From positions 4,103 through 68,102 of the forward strand of contig JAJYXT010000078.1 of the NCBI GenBank assembly GCA_021801645.1: a DNA stretch of 64,000 bases, given 5' to 3'. Below the pieces are notes generated by a model. The model saw only the letters and a program-made list of their open reading frames with translations, ran no database searches and had not been told where the DNA came from. Origin of the DNA: a bacterium. Its GTDB lineage: Bacteria > Chloroflexota > Dormibacteria > Aeolococcales > Bog-877. Position 1 is the stretch's first letter. Each line of letters starts with the position of its first letter. The position numbers and the translations under genes are program-made. This document shows positions 1 through 34,509 of the stretch, one piece after another.

Positions 1-1200
1 CAACTCGTCCCGCCTCACCCTGGTGAACCGCTCATCCATCCACTCAACAGCCGTCACCTCCGCCCCCAGGCGGCGTACGCTGCGCGCCACGTCCATGGCC
101 GTGTTGCCGCCACCGACGACCAGGACCCGCGCTCCCGGCCCCAGCTCGGGCAACGTGGCCCCCGACTCCAGGGCCCGCTTCGCCCGCCAGAGAAAGGCGG
201 TGGCGTCCTCGACTCCAGAGAGCTCCCTGCCCGGCACCGGGGGGATCAGCGGAATGCTCGCCCCGTGGGCGAGGAGGAGCGCGTCGTGCTCCTCCAGCAG
301 CTGGGCGAGGCTGACGTCGCTGCCCACCGAGCAACCGGTCTTGAGCCGCAGACCCGCCTCCTGGAGGGCCAGCACCGGACGGCGCGCGACCTCGGCGGGG
401 AGGGTGAAGTCGGGGATGCCCCATCTCGGGACCCCGCCCGGCTCGTCGTCCTTCTCGTACATGGTCACCCGGGCGCCCGCTTCCAGCAGCTCCCAGGCCG
501 CGGCGCAGCCGGCTGGCCCTGAGCCCACCACCGCCACCTTGAGCGGGGTCGAGGCGGGAGTTGCCACCTGGGGAGGGGGCACAGGCGCTCGCTCGGTGAC
601 GAACCTCTCCAGCAGCCCTATCGCCACCGGCTCCCCACCCGCCAGCGCCCAGGTGCAGGCTCCCTCGCACTGGACGCTCTGGTCACAGACCCGGCTGCAG
701 ATGTCCGGGAGGACCGAGGTCTCGCGCAGGACGGCGTGCGCCCCCTGAAGGTCACGTTCCCGAATAGCGGCGATGAATCGGGGTATGTCGTTGTGGGCCG
801 GGCAGCCCTCGAGGCAGGTCGGATCAGGGCAGGCGAGGCACCGATCGGCCTCGCGCAGGGCGTCCTTCCAGGTGCTGAACCCGCGCCTCACCTCGGTGGT
901 GTTGCCGCGGAGGCGGCTGGGATACAGGGTGAGCGACACGTGCCGCGGCCCGACCACCGTCGGCCCCTTCACCGAGATGGCGGAGTAGGGGCACACCCGC
1001 TGGCACTGCCGACAGCCGACACAGAGGAGGTCGTCGGCTCGGGCGATCCACCGCTCCTGGTCCAACCCGAGCGCCCCGGTGGGGCAGCGCACGACGCACT
1101 CCTGGCAGCCGACACAGCGCTCGCTGTCCACCCGCACCTCGGCGTGCCGGGCCTGAGCTGTCAGCGCGGACCCGATTCCCTCGCGGAGATCGACACTCAT
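1..1200 (-). CDS. Fe-S/flavin oxidoreductase. An N-terminal 2x[4Fe-4S] ferredoxin domain is fused to a GltD-like (glutamate synthase small-subunit family) NAD(P)H oxidoreductase. The 3' end runs off the window.
   Basis: Not in the ORF track because there is no stop in the window. Hand translation of the minus strand from the ATG at 1200 gives MSVDLREGIGS. It contains the ferredoxin motifs CVGCQECVVRCP and CVGCRQCQRVCP, then CLACPDPTCLEGCP. Dinucleotide-binding folds KVAVVGSGPAGCAAAWEL and VLVVGGGNTAMDVARS follow. The frame stays open to base 1. Confidence 0.8.
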   Translation of the reverse strand, partial: MSVDLREGIGSALTAQARHAEVRVDSERCVGCQECVVRCPTGALGLDQERWIARADDLLCVGCRQCQRVCPYSAISVKGPTVVGPRHVSLTLYPSRLRGNTTEVRRGFSTWKDALREADRCLACPDPTCLEGCPAHNDIPRFIAAIRERDLQGAHAVLRETSVLPDICSRVCDQSVQCEGACTWALAGGEPVAIGLLERFVTERAPVPPPQVATPASTPLKVAVVGSGPAGCAAAWELLEAGARVTMYEKDDEPGGVPRWGIPDFTLPAEVARRPVLALQEAGLRLKTGCSVGSDVSLAQLLEEHDALLLAHGASIPLIPPVPGRELSGVEDATAFLWRAKRALESGATLPELGPGARVLVVGGGNTAMDVARSVRRLGAEVTAVEWMDERFTRVRRDEL

Positions 1201-1231
1201 CTGGGGCTCCCCCACACCGTGCCTGCGGGCG

Positions 1232-2782
1232 TCACTGGATTCCACCCATGGCCACGTAGAGGGCCGCCACACCGATGCCGGCAACCACCACCGCGGAGGT
1301 GCCGATCAGCCTCAGGCTCGCCAATCGGGAGGTGAGGGGCGCCAGATCACGGCCCGAGATCTTCCAGGTGGCGTAGGCGGCGCCCAGGGTGCCGATGGCG
1401 GTGACCACCACCTGGCTGATGACCACCCCCTGCGGGGTGAGGAGGTGCAGGTTGTAGAGGGAGGAGTGGGCCGTGCCGAAGAGGTTCCAGCCGAAGCCGA
1501 ATGGATCCGAGATGGCGGGGACGATCCGGGGCGCGTGGTACCAGAACCTCGGCAACTGGCGGGCCAGGTAGTCGGCCGCCATGAGGGGGATGAAGCCGTA
1601 GGCGAGAGGAGCGAACCAGCTGGTGAAGGAGCCCGCTCTTCCCGGCACGCGGCGCAGGGACCTGACCAGGGCGACGCTGCGCTTGGCCAAAAGCTCCCTC
1701 ACGCCGAAGGCGTACGCGGCCACCAAGAGGGCGACCAAGCCGATGATCGCCAGGTAGTCGACCGGGTTGGGGTAGCCGGGGAAGCCGGTGTGGAGGTTGA
1801 GCCAGCGGTCCAGCGGTGCGTAGAAGGGCAGCGCGTTGACCTGCTGGAAGATCACCAGCCCGAACAGGATGGCCACCGCCCAGGCCACATCGACCCGGCG
1901 GCGGACGGGCGCCACGACTGAGGTGAGCGGCTTCTGGACATACACACCGACGTTGTCGTACGGGCAGTTCTTGATGCACTCGGTGCACAGCCCGCACATC
2001 AGGTTGGAGGTGGCGCTGCCCGGCCACTCGTACCAGGGGCAGGGGTAGCCCCGCTCGCTGCCCCGCATGCAATCCTTGGTGGGGCAGGTCAGGCAGCGCT
2101 CCCGGTCGCGGGTGCGCATCCCGGCCACCATCCCGGTAGATCCCACGGTCCCGATCAGGGCCGTGAGCGGGCAGAGGTAGCGGCAGAAGGTGCGCCTCTC
2201 GAAGAGAAGGAAGGTGATGAGCGCCGAGCCGATCACGAAGAAGACCAGGAAGCTGGTGAACCGGGGATCGCCGGGACCGGCGATGTTGAAGTACTCCTCG
2301 AACCAGGTGAGGCCGAGGAACATGGCCACCGATGGCAGCAGCGCCCACTTGGTGAGCCACTCTGGCCAGCGCATGTGGAGGCCGATGGAGATGGCGTGGC
2401 GCTTCCAGAAGGTGTGGCGCTGCACCCACTCGGCGAAGCCGCCGAAGGGACACATGACGCACCAGCCGCGGCCGATCCCCACCATGAGCAGGAACACGGC
2501 GCAGAACCAGATGTACCAGGTGATCACGGTGGCGAAGTTGTGGGTGGGCGCCAGGATGCCCACCAAGCCGGTCACGATCACCAGCCAGAAGATGATCTGG
2601 TTGGGCAGGATAAGCATGAACTGGAAGGGGCGGCTGCGCAGCAGCCGCCGCACCCTGGGATCGCGGGAGATGTCGATCTGAGGATCGGTCGGCCCGAAGT
2701 GAGCATCCAGCCCCGCGCGGGAGGGCTGGCGCACCCGGGTGGGCAGGTCGCGGACCGGAAGTTCCTTTAGCGGCAGGGCCAT
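1232..2782 (-). CDS. NapH/MauN-like integral-membrane polyferredoxin (4Fe-4S-binding membrane protein)
   Basis: ORF 1232..2872. Many hydrophobic segments plus Cys clusters CVMCPFG, CRYLCPL, CLTCPTKDC, CGLCTECIKNCP. I prefer the ATG at 2782 (MALPLKELPV) because AGGAGG lies about 12 nt upstream. A 31-nt gap separates it from the downstream oxidoreductase gene. Confidence 0.8.
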   Translation of the reverse strand: MALPLKELPVRDLPTRVRQPSRAGLDAHFGPTDPQIDISRDPRVRRLLRSRPFQFMLILPNQIIFWLVIVTGLVGILAPTHNFATVITWYIWFCAVFLLMVGIGRGWCVMCPFGGFAEWVQRHTFWKRHAISIGLHMRWPEWLTKWALLPSVAMFLGLTWFEEYFNIAGPGDPRFTSFLVFFVIGSALITFLLFERRTFCRYLCPLTALIGTVGSTGMVAGMRTRDRERCLTCPTKDCMRGSERGYPCPWYEWPGSATSNLMCGLCTECIKNCPYDNVGVYVQKPLTSVVAPVRRRVDVAWAVAILFGLVIFQQVNALPFYAPLDRWLNLHTGFPGYPNPVDYLAIIGLVALLVAAYAFGVRELLAKRSVALVRSLRRVPGRAGSFTSWFAPLAYGFIPLMAADYLARQLPRFWYHAPRIVPAISDPFGFGWNLFGTAHSSLYNLHLLTPQGVVISQVVVTAIGTLGAAYATWKISGRDLAPLTSRLASLRLIGTSAVVVAGIGVAALYVAMGGIQ

Positions 2783-2860
2783 TGTGGGATGCACCTCCTG
2801 TGGCACTCGAGGGATTCCACTAGTGACGGTAGGCGTTACCGCCCGGAAGCGGCAGGGCCT

Positions 2861-2885
2861 AAGGTCCCGCAAATTTCGGGACCTT
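2861..2885. promoter_or_regulatory. Perfect inverted repeat AAGGTCCCG-N7-CGGGACCTT in a divergent promoter region; candidate LuxR/DosR-type operator
   Basis: Read directly: aaggtcccg caaattt cgggacctt, with 9-bp perfect arms. It lies between divergent gene starts at 2782 (-) and 2917 (+). It contains GGGAC/GTCCC half-sites. Confidence 0.45.
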
Positions 2886-26456: not shown

Positions 26457-29081
26457 CTAGTTAGCCCCGGCGGAGTCTCCTGGCACCCTCGGCGGCTGCC
26501 AGGGGCGTCCCAGCTCATCCACCAAGAGCGCGACGAGTGCCGTCCACCCGGTCTGGTGCGAGGCCCCCTGGCCGCTCCCGTCCTCGGCGTGGAAGTACTC
26601 GTGGAAGAGCAGGCAGTCCCGCCAGGTGGGATCCTCCTGGAACTTCGAGTACCCTCCGAACACCGGACGCCGTCCGTCCTCGCCGCGGCGCAACAGCGAG
26701 ACCGTGCGCCGCGCCAGCTGGTCAGCCACCTCGGTCAGGTTCAGGGACGGGCCACCAGGTGCAGGAAACTCGTGGGTGAATCCGGGCCCGAGCCCGACCC
26801 CGAGGAGCCGCAGGGCCTGTATCAGCAGGTATCCCGTGGGCAGCCAGATCGGCCCCCGCCAGTTGGAGTTGCCCCCCATGATCCGCTCGTCGGCCGCGCC
26901 CGGCTCGTACCGGACCGGGGACATCTCGGGCACCAGCTGGGACTGGAAGGGCACCTGCTCGTGCGCCTTGGACAGCGAGCGCAGCCCGAAGTCGGAGAGG
27001 AACTCCGCGGGGCTCAGCAGCCGGTCCAGGAGCCGGTGCAGCCTCTCTGGGCCGAGCAGCGAGAGTACGGCGTAGGGATCGTCGCCAGCTGCCCGGTAAT
27101 GGAACGCGCGCTGCTGCTGGTTGGCCGCCAGCTGGCGCGCCAGGCGGGGCAGGCGGTCCAGGGTGTGCTGGTGCACCACCTCAGTGGCCGCCAATGGCAG
27201 CAGGCCCACCAGACTGCGCACCCGCAGCACCTCGCTGCGCCCGTCGGCGAGCCGGAGACGGTCGTAGTAGAAGCCTTCGTTCTCGTCCCAGAGCCCGGGC
27301 TGACCATCGTCACCGTTGAGCGCCTGGGCGATGTGGGCGAAGTGGTTGAAGAAGCGGATGGCCATGTCCTCGTACTGCGGCTCCTCCACCGCCAGCTCGG
27401 CGGCGATCCGGAACATCTTCACGGCGAACATCCCCACCCAGGCGGTGGCGTCCGCCTCCCAGATCTCGGCCCCGGACGGGAGGTGGCTGCGGTCCACCGC
27501 GGAGATGTTGTCCAGCCCGAGGAAGCCGCCGGCGAAGATGTCGTGGGCGCTCACGTCGCGACGGTTCACCCACCAGCCGTAGTTGAACAGCAGGGCCAGG
27601 AAGGCCCTCTCCAGGAACTCCCGGTCTGGCTGGCCGGTGCGGTTGCGCTCGCGGACGTAGATCTGCCAGACGGCGGCGGCGTGGACCGGTGGGTTGGAGT
27701 CGGAAAAGCTCCACTCGTAGGCGGGGAGCTGCCCGTCCTCCCGGGTGTAATCGGGCCGCAGCAGCAGCATCACCTGGCTCTTGGCCAGCTCGGGATCGTA
27801 TGGCTGCAGGGCCAGGGCGTGGAACGCCAGGTCCCACGAGGCGAACCAGGGATACTCCCAGCTGTCCGGCATGACGATCACGTCCGCCGCCCTCAGGCCC
27901 CGCCAGCCAGCATTCCTGCCCGCAAGCCGTGACGCCGGAGGTGGTGGCTCGGCGGGGTCGCCGTCCAGCCACCGGCCGACGTCGTACTCGTAGTACTGCT
28001 GCGTCCAGATCAGCCCGGCCAAACCCTGCCGGAGGATCAGCCGGTCGTCATCGTCGCAGGCCCCCGGGGACGAGCGCAGGTGGTACGCGGTGGCGGCAGC
28101 CCGCTGGCGCTCGCACACTGAGTCCACCAGCGTGGGCGACAGCCCCTCCCGATCCCCCCAGACCCAGCGCACCACCCGGCTCTCCCCCGCCCCAAGCTCG
28201 AGGATGAACTGGGCCGCGGCCCGGGTCCCCTGCCCGGCGGGATTGCACAGGCTGGGATCCTGGCGGACCACCGCATCGCCTATCGCTCCCTTGGGGTACC
28301 GGGTGGTGCCCGGAGCCCCGAAGAGCTGGGCCATGTCGGTCTCGTTGTCGCAGAAGAGGAAGGTGGCGCCCGGGTCGACCGCCAGCCGGTAGCCGGGGAA
28401 GCCGGGATGATCGAGAACCACCGCCCCATCCCGCAGTGCGAGCCCCGGCGGGGACTGCCCGGACCACGACCAGGTGTTGCGCAGCCACACCTGGGAGAGC
28501 AGGTGGAGCCGGGCCGGCTCGGAGCTGCGGTTGGTGACGGTCACCCGGCAGCAGACGACGGTGGGCGAGTCCTTCGCGTATTCGATTTGAACGTCGAAGT
28601 AGCGGCCGTCCTGAAAGAAGCCAAGGTCCAGCAGCTTGAGTTCGGGACCAGGCTCCCGATTGCGCTCCCGCAGCTCCTGATAAGGAAACGCAGCCATCGG
28701 ATAGCGGTAGACGGCGGCAAGGTAGCTGGCGTCCGGCAGGGCGTCCAGGTAGTGCCAGTACTCCTTGACGTCCTCGCCGTGATTGCCCTCGGCGTTGGTG
28801 AGGCCGAACAGCCTCTCCTTGAGGATCTCGTCGGCCCCGTTCCATAGTCCCAGCCCGAGGCACACCAGCTGCCGGCGGTCGGAGATGCCCAGCAGCCCGT
28901 CCTCCCCCCATCGGTAGGCCCTCAGACGGCTTTGCTCGAAGGGGAAATATGCCCAGGCATCCCCGTCGGCGCTGTAGTCCTCCCGGACCGTGCCCCACTG
29001 ACGAAGCGAAAGGAAAGGCCCCCAAAGCCCCTCGGGCCCCTCCGGCCGTGGGTTCTCGGGCTCATGGGTGGAGGCGGGCAC
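26457..29081 (-). CDS. GH63-like (MGH1/YgjK-type) glucosidase, 874 aa
   Basis: ORF 26457..29081. Its size and conserved blocks (RAYRWGEDGLLGISD, LWNGADEILKERLFGL, EGNHGEDVKEYW, SNWRGPIWLP) are as I recall for this family. Confidence 0.7.
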   Translation of the reverse strand: MPASTHEPENPRPEGPEGLWGPFLSLRQWGTVREDYSADGDAWAYFPFEQSRLRAYRWGEDGLLGISDRRQLVCLGLGLWNGADEILKERLFGLTNAEGNHGEDVKEYWHYLDALPDASYLAAVYRYPMAAFPYQELRERNREPGPELKLLDLGFFQDGRYFDVQIEYAKDSPTVVCCRVTVTNRSSEPARLHLLSQVWLRNTWSWSGQSPPGLALRDGAVVLDHPGFPGYRLAVDPGATFLFCDNETDMAQLFGAPGTTRYPKGAIGDAVVRQDPSLCNPAGQGTRAAAQFILELGAGESRVVRWVWGDREGLSPTLVDSVCERQRAAATAYHLRSSPGACDDDDRLILRQGLAGLIWTQQYYEYDVGRWLDGDPAEPPPPASRLAGRNAGWRGLRAADVIVMPDSWEYPWFASWDLAFHALALQPYDPELAKSQVMLLLRPDYTREDGQLPAYEWSFSDSNPPVHAAAVWQIYVRERNRTGQPDREFLERAFLALLFNYGWWVNRRDVSAHDIFAGGFLGLDNISAVDRSHLPSGAEIWEADATAWVGMFAVKMFRIAAELAVEEPQYEDMAIRFFNHFAHIAQALNGDDGQPGLWDENEGFYYDRLRLADGRSEVLRVRSLVGLLPLAATEVVHQHTLDRLPRLARQLAANQQQRAFHYRAAGDDPYAVLSLLGPERLHRLLDRLLSPAEFLSDFGLRSLSKAHEQVPFQSQLVPEMSPVRYEPGAADERIMGGNSNWRGPIWLPTGYLLIQALRLLGVGLGPGFTHEFPAPGGPSLNLTEVADQLARRTVSLLRRGEDGRRPVFGGYSKFQEDPTWRDCLLFHEYFHAEDGSGQGASHQTGWTALVALLVDELGRPWQPPRVPGDSAGAN

Positions 29082-29093
29082 CGTGGGATTGTC

Positions 29094-29348
29094 TCAGCCG
29101 GAGGGAGGAACCGGTCTGGGCTCATCCCGGCGGGCCCTCCGGCTCGGGTTGCCGTCCATGACGAGGGCCAGCGCCGGGCAGGCACCGACGGTCCGGCGAG
29201 CCAGCCGGCCCAGGTGGCGTGGCACCGGGTCAGCGGAGATGATCGGATAGCCGAAGTCATCCAGCGTGATCAGCTCGGGCAGCATCTCTGCGCAGAGCCG
29301 GTGGCCGACGCAGAGGGTGGGATCCACGTGCAGGTAGCGGCCGCTCAC
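29094..29348 (-). CDS. Small ferredoxin (84 aa)
   Basis: C-terminal part of ORF 29094..29615. The GTG at 29348 overlaps the upstream stop (GTGA). Sequence: YLHVDPTLCVGHRLCAEMLPELITLDDFGYP...ACPALAL. Confidence 0.7.
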   Translation of the reverse strand: MSGRYLHVDPTLCVGHRLCAEMLPELITLDDFGYPIISADPVPRHLGRLARRTVGACPALALVMDGNPSRRARRDEPRPVPPSG

Positions 29349-30643
29349 TGCGGATCCGGGGCAGGGGGCAGCGACAGCAACGAAGGCCGGTAGCCACCAC
29401 AGGCTCCCGAACGGTGGCGCCGCAGCTCGTCTGGGAAGGCGCTGGCCGCCGAGCGGGCAAGGTTCACCGCCCCGTCCGGGTGCCGACAGGCGCCGCGGCC
29501 CTCGATCTGGTCGCCCCACCGCTCCAGCTGCTCCAGCGCCGCTTCCGAGCCGGTCTTGGCCACCTCGTTCAGGGCTGAAGCCATCGCCGGAAGACCGAAG
29601 GCGCAGGGCCCACACTGGCGGGCTCCCTGGGCCGCCAGCCAGGCCAGGATCCGCCCTGACTCCCGAAGTCCGCAGGTGCCCTGGGGAAGCAGGTGGAGGA
29701 CCCCGGCCCCGGGAGTCGCCCCGGCCGGGCGAAGGCCGCTCCGGGAGAGCGTGAGCCGCTGGACGTCGGGGGCTCGCAGCCAGGAGCCGAAATAGCCGCC
29801 CACCAGCAGAGCTACGGCCCCAGGATCGGCCCCGGCCACGTAGAGGACTTCGGGAAGCGGGGTGCCGATGGGCACCTCATAGACCCCGGGCGCCTCCACC
29901 GCTCCGCTGAGGGTCACGAGCATGGTGCCGGGCTCGTCGGCGACCCCAGCCCCCCGGAACCACTCCGGCCCAAGCCGGACCACCAGGCCGAGGTGGGCAA
30001 GCGTCTCGACGTTCTGCACCAGGGTCGGCAGCCCCCGCCATCCCCGGTCGACCACCCGGGGGGGCTGGTACCGGGGAAGGGCCTGGCCACCCTCCAGCCA
30101 GCGGATCAGAGCGGTCTCCTCGCCGCCCACGAAGTTCGTCGGCCCGCGCACCACCTCGACCGGGATCGGCACGTCCGGGCGTTCCCGGAGAGCTGCCTCC
30201 ACCGCCGCCACCGCCGGGGCTGTGTGGGCGACCAGGAATGCCTGTCGAGCGCCGAGGATTCGGGTAGCCGCCAGCAACCCATCGAGGACCAGGTGGGGAC
30301 GGAGGCGGAGCAGGAGGTCATCCTTGCCCGCCGCCGGTTCGGTCTCCGAACCGTTCGCCACCACCACCGACCCCGGGCCGTGGCGGCGCACGGCGGCCAG
30401 CTTCTCGGCCGTCGGGAAGCCGCCACCACCACGCCCCCGAAGACCGGAGCGCCGCACCCGCTCCAGGAGCTGGTGGTGCCCCGCCCTTCCCGTCCAGTCT
30501 GTGATGCCTCCGCCCAGCCTGCCCACGTGGTCTGCCAGCGGCTCGGCCCCGCCCAGCTTCGGCCCGGCCAGGAGGCGCTGATTCCAGGGACCGCTTCGGG
30601 GCACACGCAGCTCCCCCGGCGCGGCCGGGGCTACAAGGGTCAC
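29345..30643 (-). CDS. NuoF-like (complex I 51-kDa family) NADH/FMN/[4Fe-4S] protein
   Basis: ORF 29345..30643 (GTG, GTGA overlap). FMN site RGRGGGGFPTAEK. GGEETALI. Cluster ligands QCGPCAFG...GACRHPDG. Confidence 0.8.
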   Translation of the reverse strand: MTLVAPAAPGELRVPRSGPWNQRLLAGPKLGGAEPLADHVGRLGGGITDWTGRAGHHQLLERVRRSGLRGRGGGGFPTAEKLAAVRRHGPGSVVVANGSETEPAAGKDDLLLRLRPHLVLDGLLAATRILGARQAFLVAHTAPAVAAVEAALRERPDVPIPVEVVRGPTNFVGGEETALIRWLEGGQALPRYQPPRVVDRGWRGLPTLVQNVETLAHLGLVVRLGPEWFRGAGVADEPGTMLVTLSGAVEAPGVYEVPIGTPLPEVLYVAGADPGAVALLVGGYFGSWLRAPDVQRLTLSRSGLRPAGATPGAGVLHLLPQGTCGLRESGRILAWLAAQGARQCGPCAFGLPAMASALNEVAKTGSEAALEQLERWGDQIEGRGACRHPDGAVNLARSAASAFPDELRRHRSGACGGYRPSLLSLPPAPDPQ

Positions 30644-31752
30644 GAGTCCTGGCCACCGTCCTGGCCGGCTCCGCCAGCGGGGGCACTGCCAAAGTAGAAA
30701 AGGCCAGAGACCGAGGAGGCGGGGACGGGGCCACTGATGGTCAGCTCAGCCGGCTCCGATTGGCCTCCGCCAGCAGCGAGCCTCATGATCAGTGAACCTG
30801 GACCCACCGACACGACCCTGCCCGTGTAGACCAAGGACCCGGGGGCGGGCCGGTAGGTGACCGACCCCTGGTCCACCGCGATGGTTCCGTCGGGCAGCTG
30901 GCTGGCGGACAGGGAGACCAGAAGCTGGCCCCCCACTCCTCCCTGCACCTGTCCAGAGATGGTGATCGTCTCACCGTTGCCGCCTGCGGAGGAGGTGGCC
31001 GAGCCCACGAACCTGGCCGTGAAGGGGGCCGGGAGGGACGCCTGCCCGCCAGCGCCCGTCGAGGCCGGAGCTCCCGAGGCGAGTGCGGTGGTGGGAGTCC
31101 CGGCTTGCCGGGCCCAGCCACTCTGCAGCGGCCCGGCCGCCGACCAGGCCAGAACCGCCATGGGGGTGGCCGCGACCGCCGCCATGATGACGCCCCGCAC
31201 GGCCACCCGCGGCCGGGTGGCCCGGGCCACCCGGAAGATCACTGTCGTAGCCACCAGTCCCACGCAGCCCAACTCGAACCCGAAGACCCAGGTGAGCTTG
31301 GTGTCGGTGCCGGTGCCCAGCGAATGGAGGACGGCAACCGGCCAGGAGACGTAGGTGAGCCAGTGGATCACCCGCCACCAGCGTGGCCGAAGGTGGGATC
31401 GCAGCAGGCTGGTTACCACCACGGCGGCCATGAGGTCCAGGCTGAGGGTGCCGAGCCCCAGCCAGAAGGGCCGGTAAGGGCTCACGAACGGCACCAGGGC
31501 CGCCCACCAGCCGACCGGGACGAACGGGTCCAGCTCGATGGTGACCACGTGGATGGTCAGGAGCACCACAGCCAGGAGGGCGAGGTTGCGATGCACCGCC
31601 TGCACCGCAAACCGCGGCCAGCTCTCGGGGTGCCACCCGCCCTGGATGGCGATCCCCATGACCAGATTGACCGTGAGCACCGCCAGCAGCACCAGACCAC
31701 TTCCGCGGGCCAGGTACCAGAGAGTCATCGTCCCTCCGACGGCGGCGGCCAT
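30640..31752 (-). CDS. Ferric-reductase/MsrQ-like di-heme transmembrane protein with an extracytoplasmic C-terminal domain
   Basis: ORF 30640..31752. TM His pairs: AVHRNLALLAVVLLTIHVV and VIHWLTYVSWPVAVLHS. The ~170-aa Ser/Gly-rich C-terminal domain has unknown fold. Confidence 0.75.
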   Translation of the reverse strand: MAAAVGGTMTLWYLARGSGLVLLAVLTVNLVMGIAIQGGWHPESWPRFAVQAVHRNLALLAVVLLTIHVVTIELDPFVPVGWWAALVPFVSPYRPFWLGLGTLSLDLMAAVVVTSLLRSHLRPRWWRVIHWLTYVSWPVAVLHSLGTGTDTKLTWVFGFELGCVGLVATTVIFRVARATRPRVAVRGVIMAAVAATPMAVLAWSAAGPLQSGWARQAGTPTTALASGAPASTGAGGQASLPAPFTARFVGSATSSAGGNGETITISGQVQGGVGGQLLVSLSASQLPDGTIAVDQGSVTYRPAPGSLVYTGRVVSVGPGSLIMRLAAGGGQSEPAELTISGPVPASSVSGLFYFGSAPAGGAGQDGGQDS

Positions 31753-31754
31753 CG

Positions 31755-32735
31755 TCAGGCCCCGGCCCGGCCAGGCAGGGAAGCGAGCTCCTCACCCTGA
31801 GAGGGCCAGCCGCCGCAATGGACGACCCGACCGTCCGCGGCCACCAGCCGGGCCGCGGCGCCAAACCGGGCCAGGAGCCCCTCCGCCCGATCTCCAGCCA
31901 CGAGGGCCGCGGTGGACAGGGCATTGGCCCGCAGGCAGGTGTCGGCGACGACGGTTGCCGTCCGCCAGCGCCCTTGCGCCGGGCGGCCGGTGCGAGGGTC
32001 GATCAGGTGGTGCATGGCCGTCCCCTGGCGGATCCAGCGCCGGACCACGGTCGAGGAGGTCGCCATGCCTCGCGCCAGAAGGGTGACCGTCTGCCCAGGC
32101 TCCTCCCCTCCCCCCCTATGGTCATCCCCGATCCGAACTGTCCAGCCACCTGCGGGCACCGGGCCTGCGGTGGCGATGTCCCCACCCAGGCTCACCAGGC
32201 AGGCCGCACCGGAGGCAGCGCCGGCCCGAGACGCGGCGACATCCGCGGCTGAGGCCTTGGCCGTCGCCCCGAGGTCCAGTAGCACCCCCGAGGGGCGAGC
32301 GAGGACCGCACCCTCGAGCCGGACCTGGTGCCATCCGGGAGCTGGGGTCGAGGGTCTGGGGGCTGCGCTGGCGTCCTCATCGAGGTGGGAGAAGTCGCGG
32401 TCGTACCCGGCGGCCAGCAGAGCGGCGCCTACGGTGGGGTCGAGCAGACCATCGGTCGCTCGCGACCAGAAGAGGGCGTCAGCCAACAGGCTGGCCAGCC
32501 CATCGCTCACGCGGATCTCCGGCCGAGGGTCCGAGTTCACCCGGGCCAGTTCGGAGTCTGGCCTGAAGCGGCTGGCCAGGTCGTCAACCTGGGCGATCAC
32601 CCGGTCGGCCTCCCTCAACGCCGGAGCCAGTTGGTGCCCGCCCGCGATCAGGACCCGCGCGGTGGTACCGAGGGCCGGCCGCCAGGCCCCCGAGAGACCG
32701 GGGATGGGTGGCAGGCGGGCCCAACCCCCCTCCAC
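31755..32735 (-). CDS. apbE: FAD:protein FMN transferase (ApbE) catalytic domain; lacks its own signal or anchor
   Basis: ORF 31755..32735 (GTG). ALGTTARVLI, SRFRPDSELARVN, LDLGATAKA, GGDIA, HLIDPRTGRP. Confidence 0.85.
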   Translation of the reverse strand: MEGGWARLPPIPGLSGAWRPALGTTARVLIAGGHQLAPALREADRVIAQVDDLASRFRPDSELARVNSDPRPEIRVSDGLASLLADALFWSRATDGLLDPTVGAALLAAGYDRDFSHLDEDASAAPRPSTPAPGWHQVRLEGAVLARPSGVLLDLGATAKASAADVAASRAGAASGAACLVSLGGDIATAGPVPAGGWTVRIGDDHRGGGEEPGQTVTLLARGMATSSTVVRRWIRQGTAMHHLIDPRTGRPAQGRWRTATVVADTCLRANALSTAALVAGDRAEGLLARFGAAARLVAADGRVVHCGGWPSQGEELASLPGRAGA

Positions 32736-33035
32736 TCAGGAGCCGCCGGAGGTGACCACCGGCGGAGCGGTCGCGGGAGCGGGGGCAACGCCGCCAGAGG
32801 CGCTTCCCCCGCTCCCGGAGCTCGAGGCCGCCCCCCCGCCGGACGAGCCGGACGCAGGCGCGGATGCGGCGGCGCCGGTGGCGTGCGAGCTCCGGCCAGG
32901 TATGGCATTGGCGACGGCGGCCGCCACCGCCGCGGTACCCGCCATGGCCGCCAAGGTGAGCCACACGGTCGCCCGCCGCACCAGGGATTCGCCCCGGGTC
33001 CGCTCCCGCTGGCTGAAGGGAGGTGGGAGTGCCAT
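32736..33035 (-). CDS. Signal-anchor plus Ser/Gly/Ala linker ORF (99 aa), in frame with apbE and separated from it by one TGA
   Basis: ORF 32736..33035. TM VWLTLAAMAGTAAVAAAVA, then a low-complexity tail ending VVTSGGS. The TGA at 32736-32738 is followed immediately, in the same frame, by the apbE GTG at 32735. Confidence 0.5.
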   Translation of the reverse strand: MALPPPFSQRERTRGESLVRRATVWLTLAAMAGTAAVAAAVANAIPGRSSHATGAAASAPASGSSGGGAASSSGSGGSASGGVAPAPATAPPVVTSGGS

Positions 33036-33101: not shown

Positions 33102-33151
33102 GATAACGCAAGTCAGTTGCGCAACCGGCTTGCTTTATGTATGATGGAGCC
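33102..33151 (+). promoter_or_regulatory. Candidate promoter/operator of the Fur-family gene: TTGCGC-17-TATGAT, palindromic TTGCGCAA at the -35, ATG 6 nt after the -10
   Basis: GATAACGCAAGTCAGTTGCGCAACC from 33102. TTGCGC at 33117-33122, TATGAT at 33140-33145, ATG at 33152. Confidence 0.4.
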
Positions 33152-33577
33152 ATGGGCAGAAGGCCGAAGATCGCGGGGGCGGTTCAGGAACTCATGGCGG
33201 CGCGGGGCCGGCATGCGTGGACGCTGGAGGAGTTGCGTCAGGCGCTGGCCGCCAAGGGGATCCGCGCCGACTTCTCCTCGGTGTTCCGGGCCACCGCTCG
33301 GCTGGAAACTGAGGGAGCCCTGCGCCGGGTGGAGCTGGACGATGGCCGCACCCATGTCGAGATCCGGGACGAGCACCACGACCACTTCCGGTGCGAGCTG
33401 TGTGGCGAGGTCGTGGCCGTTCCCTGTGAGGCATCCGGGGCGGCCATGCGGGCGCTGGAGGACGCCACCGGGCTGGAGATCCATGACCATCACCTGGTTT
33501 TGACCGGTGTCTGCCAGGGCTGTCGGTCCCGAACGTCCGACCAGCTGGTGCTGAGCGCAGCGGGGGCGGCATCGTGA
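33152..33577 (+). CDS. Fur-family metalloregulator
   Basis: In ORF 33137..33577. HHDHFRCELCGEVV and VLTGVCQGC Cys pairs. The start is ATG 33152 (leaderless layout) or ATG 33137. Confidence 0.85.
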   Translation: MGRRPKIAGAVQELMAARGRHAWTLEELRQALAAKGIRADFSSVFRATARLETEGALRRVELDDGRTHVEIRDEHHDHFRCELCGEVVAVPCEASGAAMRALEDATGLEIHDHHLVLTGVCQGCRSRTSDQLVLSAAGAAS

Positions 33578-34509
33578 TCGGGGCGGTGATCAACCTCTGG
33601 AACCCGGTGCACGTAACCGGGCTGGCGATCTTCGTGACCGCGCTGCTCCTGGGCATGGTGCATGGCATCACCCCGGACGAGCACACCTGGCCGATCACCT
33701 TCAGCTACGCCATCGGCAGCTACTCCACCAAGCGTGGGTTCCGATCGGGACTGATCTTCTCGCTGGCCTTCACCCTGCAGCGCGCCATTGCCGCCGAGCT
33801 CGCCTACCTGGGCTTCAGCCGGATCCTTACCCTGGCGGGCGCCGACTACGCGATCTACGTGGTCGTGGGGATCCTGATGGCCTGGGCTGGGCTGATGATC
33901 GCCAGGCGGAGTCGGCTCCCGTTCCACTTCCACCTGCACATCCCCTGGCTGCAGAAGGATGCCGCCCTGGTGCACTCGGGGCAGGAGTTCCCCACCCCGG
34001 GGTGGGTACAGGACCCCCGGCCCTGGATGCCCGCCGTCCACGGCTTCGTGGCCGGGTGGGGATTCGGTGCGTTCGCCATCATCATCTACACGGTGCTGGC
34101 CCCGGCCATGCCCTCACCATTACTGGGGTGGGTGCCGGGGGCGCTCTTCGGGATCGGGACCACCATCGTCCAGGTGCTGGCGGGCGCCGCCTTCGGCCGT
34201 TATGCCTCGCGGCGCGGACTTCCCCCCGAGGCCGTCCGGCACGTGGCCCTCACGGTCGCCGGACGGACGCTCACCTGGGGAGGGCTGGCCTTCATCGTGG
34301 GCGGAGTCTTCGGCCTAAGCTTCCCCCAGATCGCCAACCTCAGCTTCGCCACCGGAATCCAGGTCCACAACCTGGACCAGATCGGCTTGCCACTCTTCCT
34401 GGTGGTCTTCGCCGTGGTCGGGGTGGGCGTGACCTCCCTGATCCGGGAGACCAGGTCCTGGTCCCGAAGGCAGGCGGCCCAGGTGGCCGGCGCATCCCAT
34501 CCGGCCTGA
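33574..34509 (+). CDS. Polytopic membrane protein, putative transition-metal (Ni/Co-type) transporter
   Basis: ORF 33574..34509. The GTG overlaps the fur stop (GTGA). The TM1 motif GMVHGITPDEHTW resembles H-x4-D-H metal permease signatures. The assignment is tentative. Confidence 0.6.
   Translation: MIGAVINLWNPVHVTGLAIFVTALLLGMVHGITPDEHTWPITFSYAIGSYSTKRGFRSGLIFSLAFTLQRAIAAELAYLGFSRILTLAGADYAIYVVVGILMAWAGLMIARRSRLPFHFHLHIPWLQKDAALVHSGQEFPTPGWVQDPRPWMPAVHGFVAGWGFGAFAIIIYTVLAPAMPSPLLGWVPGALFGIGTTIVQVLAGAAFGRYASRRGLPPEAVRHVALTVAGRTLTWGGLAFIVGGVFGLSFPQIANLSFATGIQVHNLDQIGLPLFLVVFAVVGVGVTSLIRETRSWSRRQAAQVAGASHPA

Follow-up and report, generated by a model that had tools for sequence, protein, structure and literature searches.

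A conserved operon with NuoF-like and ApbE genes in Dormibacterota and Actinomycetota encodes a membrane-anchored protein with a candidate C-terminal flavinylation site

Introduction

What does an FMN transferase modify when the operon that encodes it contains no FMN-binding domain? This question is raised by five genes on the minus strand of a 64,000-nucleotide stretch of bacterial DNA (GenBank assembly GCA_021801645.1, contig JAJYXT010000078.1, positions 4,103 to 68,102), which we refer to as the window. The window has a G+C content of approximately 70%, and its DNA was detected in mine-drainage, tailings and sediment metagenomes. In order, the five genes encode a small membrane anchor, an ApbE-family FAD:protein FMN transferase, a ferric-reductase-domain (FRD) membrane protein of the MsrQ/NOX-like type, a NuoF-like NADH/FMN/Fe-S protein, and a ferredoxin. 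An earlier note on this locus, made from the letters alone (the sequence-only reading), had described the cluster as a complex-I-type NADH input joined to a trans-membrane haem wire and a flavin transferase. We describe here an analysis indicating that the anchor is the likely substrate of the operon's ApbE, since it ends in a conserved [S/T]-G-[G/A]-[S/T] sequence and contains only a disordered linker besides its helix; the anchor would thereby act as a tether bearing a naturally occurring flavin tag at its C-terminus.

This type of cluster is not without precedent. Méheust et al. (2021, eLife, PMC8238504) catalogued 1797 MsrQ-like flavinylation clusters, mostly actinobacterial, of which 31 contain a NuoF-like protein with the PF10589 domain; for these NuoF-like clusters the authors put forward NAD(P)H as the cytosolic donor and did not name a substrate for flavinylation. 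The same survey reported an orphan apbE, with substrates yet to be found, in about 4% of genomes, and its filter called for ApbE, FMN_bind, DUF2271 or DUF3570 to carry a signal peptide or a lipidation site. The MsrQ-like flavinylation clusters are bioinformatic classes and have not been biochemically characterised (Méheust et al. 2021; Huang et al. 2024, mSystems). A full-text literature search returned, beyond Méheust et al. 2021, no paper naming both ApbE and a NuoF-like protein. The kind of cluster is already known; what is new in the operon described here is the domain-less tether, the beta-barrel on the FRD protein, and an ApbE that lacks a signal peptide.

The flavinylation motif recognised by ApbE has the core [S/T]-G-A-[S/T], with the FMN placed on the last residue. 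According to a 2025 review in the Journal of Biological Chemistry (PMC12052999), seven residues suffice for modification, the last of these being the target, and tags work best at a protein terminus. The review also records that changing the Asp of the motif to Ala has a minor effect and that changing its Ala to Val still permits approximately 50% flavinylation. Proteins of the FMN_red type are flavinylated on an unstructured C-terminal extension (Huang et al. 2024).

Results

The anchor gene (33035..32736, minus strand) was read from the DNA as an open reading frame (ORF) for a protein of 99 amino acids. In the window the protein consists of a short basic N-terminus, predicted to be cytoplasmic (RERTRGESLVRR), one transmembrane helix, the residues PGR, and a 57-residue linker of Ala, Ser, Gly and Pro, and it terminates in VVTSGGS, after which comes the stop codon TGA. 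For comparison between loci, FRD homologues were scanned in one genome per species, which gave more than 511 relatives; the best 80 of these were analysed and, together with 3 loci obtained by exact-protein look-up, make up a set of 83 distinct loci. In 72 distinct loci a homologous anchor ORF of the same architecture immediately precedes ApbE or FRD, including 14 in which the anchor stands directly upstream of FRD with no adjacent ApbE. In members of the family the N-terminal segment is basic and contains the loose motif RDxxLxRxxRxTRW; a single hydrophobic helix and the sequence PG[RHK] come next, and then a linker with a length of 37-151 residues (median 68), of which 74% are Ala, Ser, Pro, Gly or Thr. 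The linker between the N-terminal helix and the C-terminal end is disordered.

All 72 copies of the anchor end in [S/T]-G-[G/A]-[S/T] directly before the stop codon. The composition of the last four positions is 68 Ser and 4 Thr, 72 Gly, 70 Gly and 2 Ala, and 69 Ser and 3 Thr, and positions -5 and -6 are chiefly occupied by Val, Thr, Ser or Ala. Outside the membrane no residues are conserved except these last four, which are precisely the ones corresponding to the ApbE core motif. Every one of the four Gly codons and of the four TCN Ser codons occurs among the copies of the motif, and selection on it therefore acts at the level of the protein. As a background, the same ending was seen in approximately 11 (about 0.1%) of the 10,361 stop-to-stop ORFs counted elsewhere in these loci. 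When 44 anchors were combined into a profile, a database search with it returned 234 proteins, all of them unnamed or hypothetical, of which 119 were listed; 117 of these 119 end in [ST]G[GA][ST], made up of 106 SGGS, 4 SGGT, 1 TGGS, 4 TGAT and 2 SGAS. The family has no Pfam or NCBIfam match, either for the window copy or for the 44 anchors scanned singly, and the homologue in Actinocrinis (WP_211471062.1) is annotated as a hypothetical protein. We conclude from the sequences that the anchor ORF is a conserved separate gene. The VTSGGS at its end was one of two candidate flavinylation sites named by the sequence-only reading, and it proved to be near-invariant across the family.

Comparison with the canonical ApbE motif reveals both agreement and departure. 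The window anchor contains [S/T]-G at positions -3 and -2 and a Ser/Thr target (S96-G97 and S99), the codons for S96-G97-G98-S99, which form the proposed flavinylation site, lying at 32739..32750 on the minus strand. The canonical Ala at -1 is Gly in the window and in 70/72 loci; Ala is found at this position in 2/72 loci and in 6 of the 119 listed database members, which end in TGAT or SGAS. The canonical Asp at -6 is also absent, the position being occupied by V, P, G or A and never by a conserved Asp. Members with canonical ends occur in the same gene context. The anchor of locus L085 ends in VSGAS, has a 4-nt overlap to ApbE, and belongs to a full anchor-ApbE-FRD-NuoF-like-ferredoxin operon, while that of L086 ends in TTGAT and likewise has a 4-nt overlap to ApbE, in this case as an anchor-ApbE pair on a short contig.

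The SGGS sequence is not a by-product of the ribosome-binding and start region of ApbE, as this is ruled out by the synonymous codon variation and by retention of the motif where FRD follows directly. A Tat signal in the anchor is not supported, many copies having no twin-Arg.

Several anchors at individual loci vary at the C-terminus. In a clade comprising L002, L019 and L031 there is no adjacent ApbE and the anchors end in HTRSRGS, HTRSSGS and HTRSGGS, so that the motif is partly degenerate; the NuoF-like gene of L002 is split over two frames, and the module may be decaying in this clade. The anchors at L084:2758-3135 and L077:4707-5033 extend three residues past the motif (SGGTSSR and TGGSTIR), and the gene order at L084 is ApbE, anchor, FRD.

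The genes of the operon are closely coupled. From the DNA, the junction between the anchor and ApbE reads TCC TGA GTG, the two genes being adjacent and in the same frame; ApbE and FRD are separated by a 2-nt gap (TGA CG ATG); and the FRD/NuoF-like and NuoF-like/ferredoxin junctions are each a GTGA overlap. The five genes, their order, coordinates and strand, and the tightness of their junctions are all as the sequence-only reading had described them. Across the related loci, the anchor and ApbE genes overlap by GTGA or ATGA at 38 of 57 junctions, which places them in different frames, and few junctions are in frame. The overlapping junctions in different frames therefore point to translational coupling of two genes and not to a broken fusion. 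Contigs from three metatranscriptome runs of the same study included none over the operon, which is uninformative either way as to expression.

The module is conserved across a broad set of hosts. Synteny was counted by tblastn with the window proteins. ApbE is directly upstream of FRD in 62 of the 78 loci with enough flanking sequence, the NuoF-like gene is downstream of FRD in 70/76, and the ferredoxin is downstream of the NuoF-like gene in 70/76. The complete order ApbE, FRD, NuoF-like, ferredoxin is present in 59/83 loci, from Dormibacterota, Thermoleophilia, Acidimicrobiia, other Actinomycetota and a few other phyla. Recurrence of one gene order in 59 of 83 independent loci is far more than chance would produce. 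NCBI names the closest homologues of the window FRD Candidatus Dormibacteria or Dormibacterota. The hosts of the best 80 loci are Dormibacterota, Solirubrobacterales, Gaiellales and Thermoleophilia, Acidimicrobiales, other Actinomycetota, among them Actinocrinis puniceicyclus DSM 45618, which is in culture, and a single genome each from Limnocylindria and Acidobacteria.

The FRD protein (31752..30640, minus strand, 370 amino acids) lies directly downstream of ApbE, within the five genes of apbE over which Méheust et al. (2021) looked for a PF01794 protein. It matches PF01794 (Ferric_reduct) with an E-value of 3.2e-6 and 27.6 bits, which is 0.4 under the 28-bit gathering cutoff, and the assignment is backed by its fold. 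The AlphaFold2 (AF2) model has a mean predicted local distance difference test (pLDDT) score of 86.6 and contains six long helices followed by eight beta strands, and a Foldseek search against the Protein Data Bank (PDB) gave as best match the bacterial NADPH oxidase SpNOX (8qt6, E 9.4e-4), with STEAP2 (7tai) also recovered. The residues H54/H68 and H130/H143 are invariant in 93 sequences; they form pairs 13-14 residues apart on model helices 47-74 and 123-147, consistent with a predicted di-haem protein having two bis-His pairs. The His-bearing helices are the second and fourth, and the first NOX helix is therefore missing from FRD. After the helix matching the last NOX helix are found a basic loop and a sixth helix. 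No FAD_binding or NAD_binding domain is present in FRD, which has instead an all-beta C-terminal region after the extra helix.

The orientation of FRD was assessed from the mean number of Lys plus Arg residues in each segment of the family. Loops 1-2, 3-4 and 5-6 have means of 2.7, 4.1 and 2.3, and the N-terminus, loop 2-3, loop 4-5 and the segment after helix 6 have means of 1.2, 1.4, 0.9 and 2.0. These counts place the FRD tail outside the membrane, and the extracytoplasmic tail proposed by the sequence-only reading is thus upheld as a prediction. The tail comprises about 165 residues after the sixth helix, with a conserved GPLQxGWARxAGTP sequence, a variable linker and a beta domain (residues 244-354, 30691..31023, minus strand). 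In the AF2 models the beta domain is an eight-stranded antiparallel beta-barrel of about 110 residues, with a pLDDT of about 90 in both the full-length and the tail-only models (88.5 for the tail modelled alone), which supplies the tail structure that the sequence-only reading had suggested predicting. A structure search against the PDB found no solved relative of the barrel with an E-value below 1e-3. Its best neighbours, with TM-scores of 0.47-0.56, are the allene oxide cyclase AOC2 (4h69), a dirigent protein (4rev) and the Diels-Alderase PloI4 (7x86), folds that are eight-stranded antiparallel barrels holding small hydrophobic ligands.

The tail contains no conserved [ST]GA[ST]. The second candidate site of the sequence-only reading, VGSATSS in the first tail strand, is ruled out as a flavinylation site because the column is not conserved, other members having, for example, GTLASS, GRLTES or GTLHRS there. 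Some Dormibacterota have short forms of FRD of 215-251 amino acids (L008:6001-6690, L060:250-885 and P0036-P0048) that have no beta-barrel and retain the sixth helix and the GPLQxGWARxAGTP sequence. At L008 an SGGS-ended anchor and ApbE are still present; at L060 the contig end cuts the locus such that only the 3' end of ApbE is visible and there is no room for an anchor.

On the input side, the NuoF-like protein (30643..29345, minus strand, 432 amino acids) has Complex1_51K (PF01512, E 1.6e-32), SLBB (PF10531, E 1.6e-7) and NADH_4Fe-4S (PF10589, E 1.9e-14) domains. The last of these is the domain that defines the NuoF-like subtype of Méheust et al. (2021), and the protein is present in 70/76 related loci. 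Among PDB entries it is closest to NuoF and HydB (E 1e-44 to 1e-43), and the GGGGFPT..K and EPGT-type motifs are kept. Against the NCBIfam model TIGR01959 it scores 197.6 bits, far below the equivalog cutoff of 558.65, so that it is not a true NuoF. Five Cys residues (C324, C344, C347, C386 and C415) are invariant in 70 family members, and the third Cys of the canonical CxxCxxC of cluster N3 is replaced by Gly350. This replacement suggests that the Fe-S cluster uses one of the two extra Cys, C324 or C415, as a substitute ligand or that it differs in type. No NuoE or other Nuo genes occur with the module in any locus examined, in agreement with the earlier description of a complex-I-type input without any other Nuo subunit. 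The ferredoxin (29348..29094, minus strand, 84 amino acids; PF13459 Fer4_15, E 1.1e-8) has three Cys residues in the pattern CxxHxxC...CP. This three-Cys pattern of actinobacterial Fer4_15 ferredoxins is typical of single [3Fe-4S] clusters.

The ApbE protein (32735..31755, minus strand, 326 amino acids; PF02424, E 1.3e-51) contains a full-length ApbE domain with the FAD/Mg and catalytic motifs. The PF02424 match covers profile positions 2-256 of 266, and alignment to the solved enzymes 1vrm and 4xdt shows the motifs DLGATAK, GGD and HHLIDPRTG to be intact. The alignment to these structures begins at residue 21, at their mature N-termini, the start of the window protein being approximately 20 residues ahead of the first conserved strand. 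Neither sequence inspection nor this alignment revealed a signal peptide, lipobox or transmembrane helix in the window ApbE, and a hydrophobic N-terminus was found in none of more than 100 ApbE relatives (303-386 amino acids). The enzyme is predicted on this basis to be cytoplasmic. By sequence inspection the window operon thus falls outside the signal-peptide and lipidation filter of Méheust et al. (2021). With a signal-less ApbE and an anchor outside the filter families, most members of the present family were probably filtered out of that census.

The products of the operon include no FMN_bind protein, which is a typical though not obligatory component of such clusters. The Pfam searches that the sequence-only reading had proposed matched ApbE, Ferric_reduct and Complex1_51K, and Pfam and NCBIfam scans found no FMN_bind domain in the five products, as it had supposed. 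The canonical D-x-x-[ST]-G-A-[ST] motif is absent from every frame of at least 100 amino acids within the 64-kb window. A NapH-like PF12801 membrane protein (1232..2872) adjoins a Fer4/GltD-like NAD(P)H flavoprotein at window positions 1-2872 on the minus strand; it has no FMN_bind domain, and no canonical ApbE substrate is therefore provided by it. The picture of extracytoplasmic flavinylation given by the sequence-only reading stands as regards an ApbE without an FMN_bind partner; it left the missing ApbE signal peptide unaddressed. A second ApbE paralogue was observed in one Actinomycetes metagenome-assembled genome (L051:2584-3540, minus strand), approximately 1.5 kb upstream of the module; it has no signal peptide and no recognisable FMN_bind neighbour.

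The genes flanking the operon appear to be peripheral to it. A GH63/MGH1-like glycoside hydrolase, recognised by Pfam in an 874-aa ORF (26457..29081, minus strand), is separated from the ferredoxin gene by 12 nt. A Fur-family regulator (33137..33577, plus strand; PF01475, E 1.2e-13) is transcribed divergently from the operon and may be a lineage-specific regulator of it; the Fur-family gene shows translational coupling to one for a 311-aa polytopic membrane protein with no Pfam or NCBIfam family, the pair spanning 33137-34509. The GH63, Fur-family and 311-aa protein genes are syntenic only in L005, the closest relative, so that neither GH63 nor Fur counts as part of the module; the position and strand of GH63 given by the sequence-only reading are correct, and its membership of the module does not hold outside that one relative. 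Conserved functional neighbours are likewise ruled out, as the flanks vary by lineage (GNAT, acyl-CoA dehydrogenase, ABC-2, two-component systems). No MsrP (molybdopterin) partner gene adjoins the module in the window or the inspected loci.

The only recurrent extra neighbour is a His-rich membrane protein of approximately 210 residues, present in 24/84 loci on either side and either strand (L001:9602-10243, minus; L002:9850-10479, plus; L003:5642-6298, plus; L013:240-836, plus; and 20 further loci). It has 4-5 transmembrane helices and the motifs GNxRLT, HxFIG, KxGSTGYRFxRYY, LHKxxF and HVxxH, and one member weakly matches cytochrome b561 (PF01292, E 1.6e-4). This b561-like protein, of which there is no copy in the window, may be a second haem protein working with the module.

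Discussion

We consider it fairly probable that the operon encodes an NADH-driven trans-membrane electron-export module, of the NuoF-like subtype of the MsrQ-like clusters, in which the anchor is flavinylated by ApbE. The gene content, the coupling, and the conservation of both the module and the C-terminal motif are shown by the sequences; in the following scheme we infer the cofactors and topology, the direction in which electrons move, their acceptor, and the modification of the tether by flavin. NADH would reduce the FMN of the NuoF-like protein, and electrons would then pass by way of its Fe-S cluster and the three-Cys ferredoxin to the cytoplasmic haem of FRD and cross to the outer haem. 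The outer face would present the eight-stranded beta-barrel, fused to FRD through the extra sixth helix, together with the anchor protein, to the terminal Ser/Thr of which ApbE would attach FMN. The tethered flavin would take electrons at the outer face of FRD, possibly while docked in the barrel, and hand them to an external acceptor. Our guess that this acceptor is Fe(III) is a weak one, prompted by the divergent Fur-family gene, a link seen only in the window and L005, and by the mine-drainage source. The earlier reading of NADH input, haem wire and flavin transferase is upheld in its domain content and tight coupling, and fails for one of its two candidate motifs.

More tentatively, we raise the possibility that the anchor represents an undescribed class of ApbE substrate. 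Such a substrate would be domain-less, disordered and membrane-anchored, would carry one FMN on its last residue, and might serve as a swinging-arm electron carrier, with the barrel as its docking cup, linking the NOX-like haem wire to acceptors located within the cell envelope or beyond it. Since its ApbE lacks an export signal, FMN would be added in the cytoplasm and would cross the membrane together with the tail.

Several observations weigh against the flavinylated export module. The motif in the window has Gly in place of the canonical Ala and does not have the Asp at -6. Some FRD homologues (L008, L060) lack the barrel, so that the barrel is not essential to the tether. The charge bias of the anchor is only moderate, with a net charge of +3.5 before the helix and +1.8 after it. 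Most importantly, the ApbE clade has no export signal, yet the end of the tether, its proposed target, is predicted to be extracytoplasmic. Possible resolutions of this conflict are that flavinylation precedes translocation of the tail, that the tether faces inward, or that the export prediction is wrong. It is chiefly this conflict in the localisation of ApbE and tether that keeps our confidence in the tether proposal from being higher.

A potential concern is that the export conduit is real and the anchor is not flavinylated, the SGGS end serving as a docking or assembly peptide and ApbE acting on a canonical FMN-binding protein whose gene lies in another part of the genome. The departure of the motif from D-x-x-[ST]-G-A-[ST] at two positions is consistent with such an arrangement, as are the lack of an export signal on ApbE and the approximately 20% of loci that have an anchor and no adjacent ApbE. 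The anchor and ApbE are nevertheless translationally coupled in most loci, and some members have canonical TGAT or SGAS ends in the same context. Furthermore, the 64-kb window contains neither an FMN_bind domain nor a canonical motif, and the extramembrane conservation of the anchor is confined to the four positions of the ApbE core. We consider a non-flavinylated anchor unlikely.

Another arrangement places the flavin tether in the cytoplasm, with the anchor either N-out/C-in or membrane-associated, where it would be flavinylated by the cytoplasmic ApbE and would relay electrons between the ferredoxin or NuoF-like protein and the inner haem in the manner of the FAD domain of NOX. In enzymes of the NOX type a flavin is required beside the inner haem. 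An inward tether would agree with this requirement, given the match of FRD to the SpNOX fold, and also with the missing export signal of ApbE and with the net positive charge (+1.8) of the anchor segment after the helix. The positive charge is stronger, and a conserved basic motif is found, on the N-terminal side of the helix, however, and the Fe-S carriers already supply single electrons, so that an inner flavin is not required. In addition, the membrane-anchored flavinylated partner is extracytosolic in typical MsrQ-like clusters, and long Pro/Ala/Ser linkers are, we would argue, typical of envelope-spanning segments. An inward-facing tether seems to us quite improbable.

We give very little credence to the idea that the anchor and ApbE are one membrane-anchored ApbE gene, split by a nonsense mutation or sequencing error or joined by TGA read-through: the two window ORFs do share a frame with one TGA between them, and ApbE itself has no anchor, but such a broken or read-through fusion is ruled out by the different frames of 38/57 junctions (GTGA/ATGA; others have several codons between stop and start) and by the persistence of the anchor without adjacent ApbE in 14 loci, and it does not fit with a stop right after [ST]G[GA][ST] in 72/72 copies or with the absence of any anchor-ApbE fusion among the 120 best ApbE homologues.

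The proposed flavinylated export module resembles several known systems and differs from each. With the MsrQ-like clusters it shares a PF01794 di-haem membrane protein encoded with apbE, the mainly actinobacterial distribution and the NuoF-like subset, and in those clusters a membrane-anchored extracytosolic flavinylated partner has been modelled next to MsrQ. Typical MsrQ-like clusters also have an FMN_bind protein and usually an NAD-binding domain fused to MsrQ, whereas the window operon has neither; its partner is reduced to an anchor, a linker and a four-residue end, its FRD has an extra helix and beta-barrel, and its ApbE is signal-less. FRD shares with SpNOX (8qt6/8qq7) and STEAP2 (7tai) the ferric-reductase transmembrane fold with two bis-His haem sites on alternate helices, and the NOX and STEAP proteins move electrons from cytosolic NAD(P)H to the outside, as is proposed for FRD. 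NOX enzymes, however, have a fused FAD/NAD(P)H dehydrogenase domain, in the place of which FRD would have a separate NuoF-like and ferredoxin input, and FRD differs further in lacking the first helix and in having an extra C-terminal helix that would carry the beta-barrel outside. The NuoF-like protein has the FMN/NADH domain, SLBB domain and C-terminal Fe-S region of complex I NuoF and of HydB/HoxF, but differs from NuoF in its score far below the equivalog cutoff, in having no adjacent NuoE or Nuo genes, and in the Gly that replaces the third Cys.

Similar comparisons can be made for the modified protein. In the extracellular electron transfer system of Listeria monocytogenes (Ndh2, EetA/B, PplA, FmnB), an ApbE-family enzyme also makes a membrane-tethered extracytosolic flavoprotein that feeds external acceptors. 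The Listeria system is quinone-dependent, with FmnB extracytosolic and PplA a lipoprotein with two folded FMN_bind domains, whereas the window operon would use a haem wire for the trans-membrane step and would take its electrons from NADH by way of Fe-S carriers. The flavin-tag of Tong et al. (2021), as summarised in PMC12052999, is a short unstructured peptide in which the last motif residue is the target, as is proposed for the anchor; that tag, as the review presents it, is engineered and has the sequence D-x-x-[ST]-G-A-[ST], whereas the anchor motif is natural, mostly S-G-G-S, and located at the very C-terminus. FMN_red proteins carry a folded flavin-binding domain in the same chain, and the anchor chain in contrast has no folded domain.

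If our interpretation is correct, the missing substrate would be named for one group of the orphan ApbE enzymes left unexplained by earlier surveys, and covalent flavinylation would occur without a folded flavin-binding domain in the modified chain. The module is found in 59-70 of the 83 best-matching loci, out of more than 500 FRD matches in the species-genome scan, from soil and mine-drainage Actinomycetota and Dormibacterota, and published censuses that require a signal peptide probably undercount it. A flavin on a flexible tether of 40-150 residues would constitute a new physical solution for the movement of electrons from membrane to envelope, one that sits between diffusing flavin shuttles and multi-haem or multi-flavin wires.

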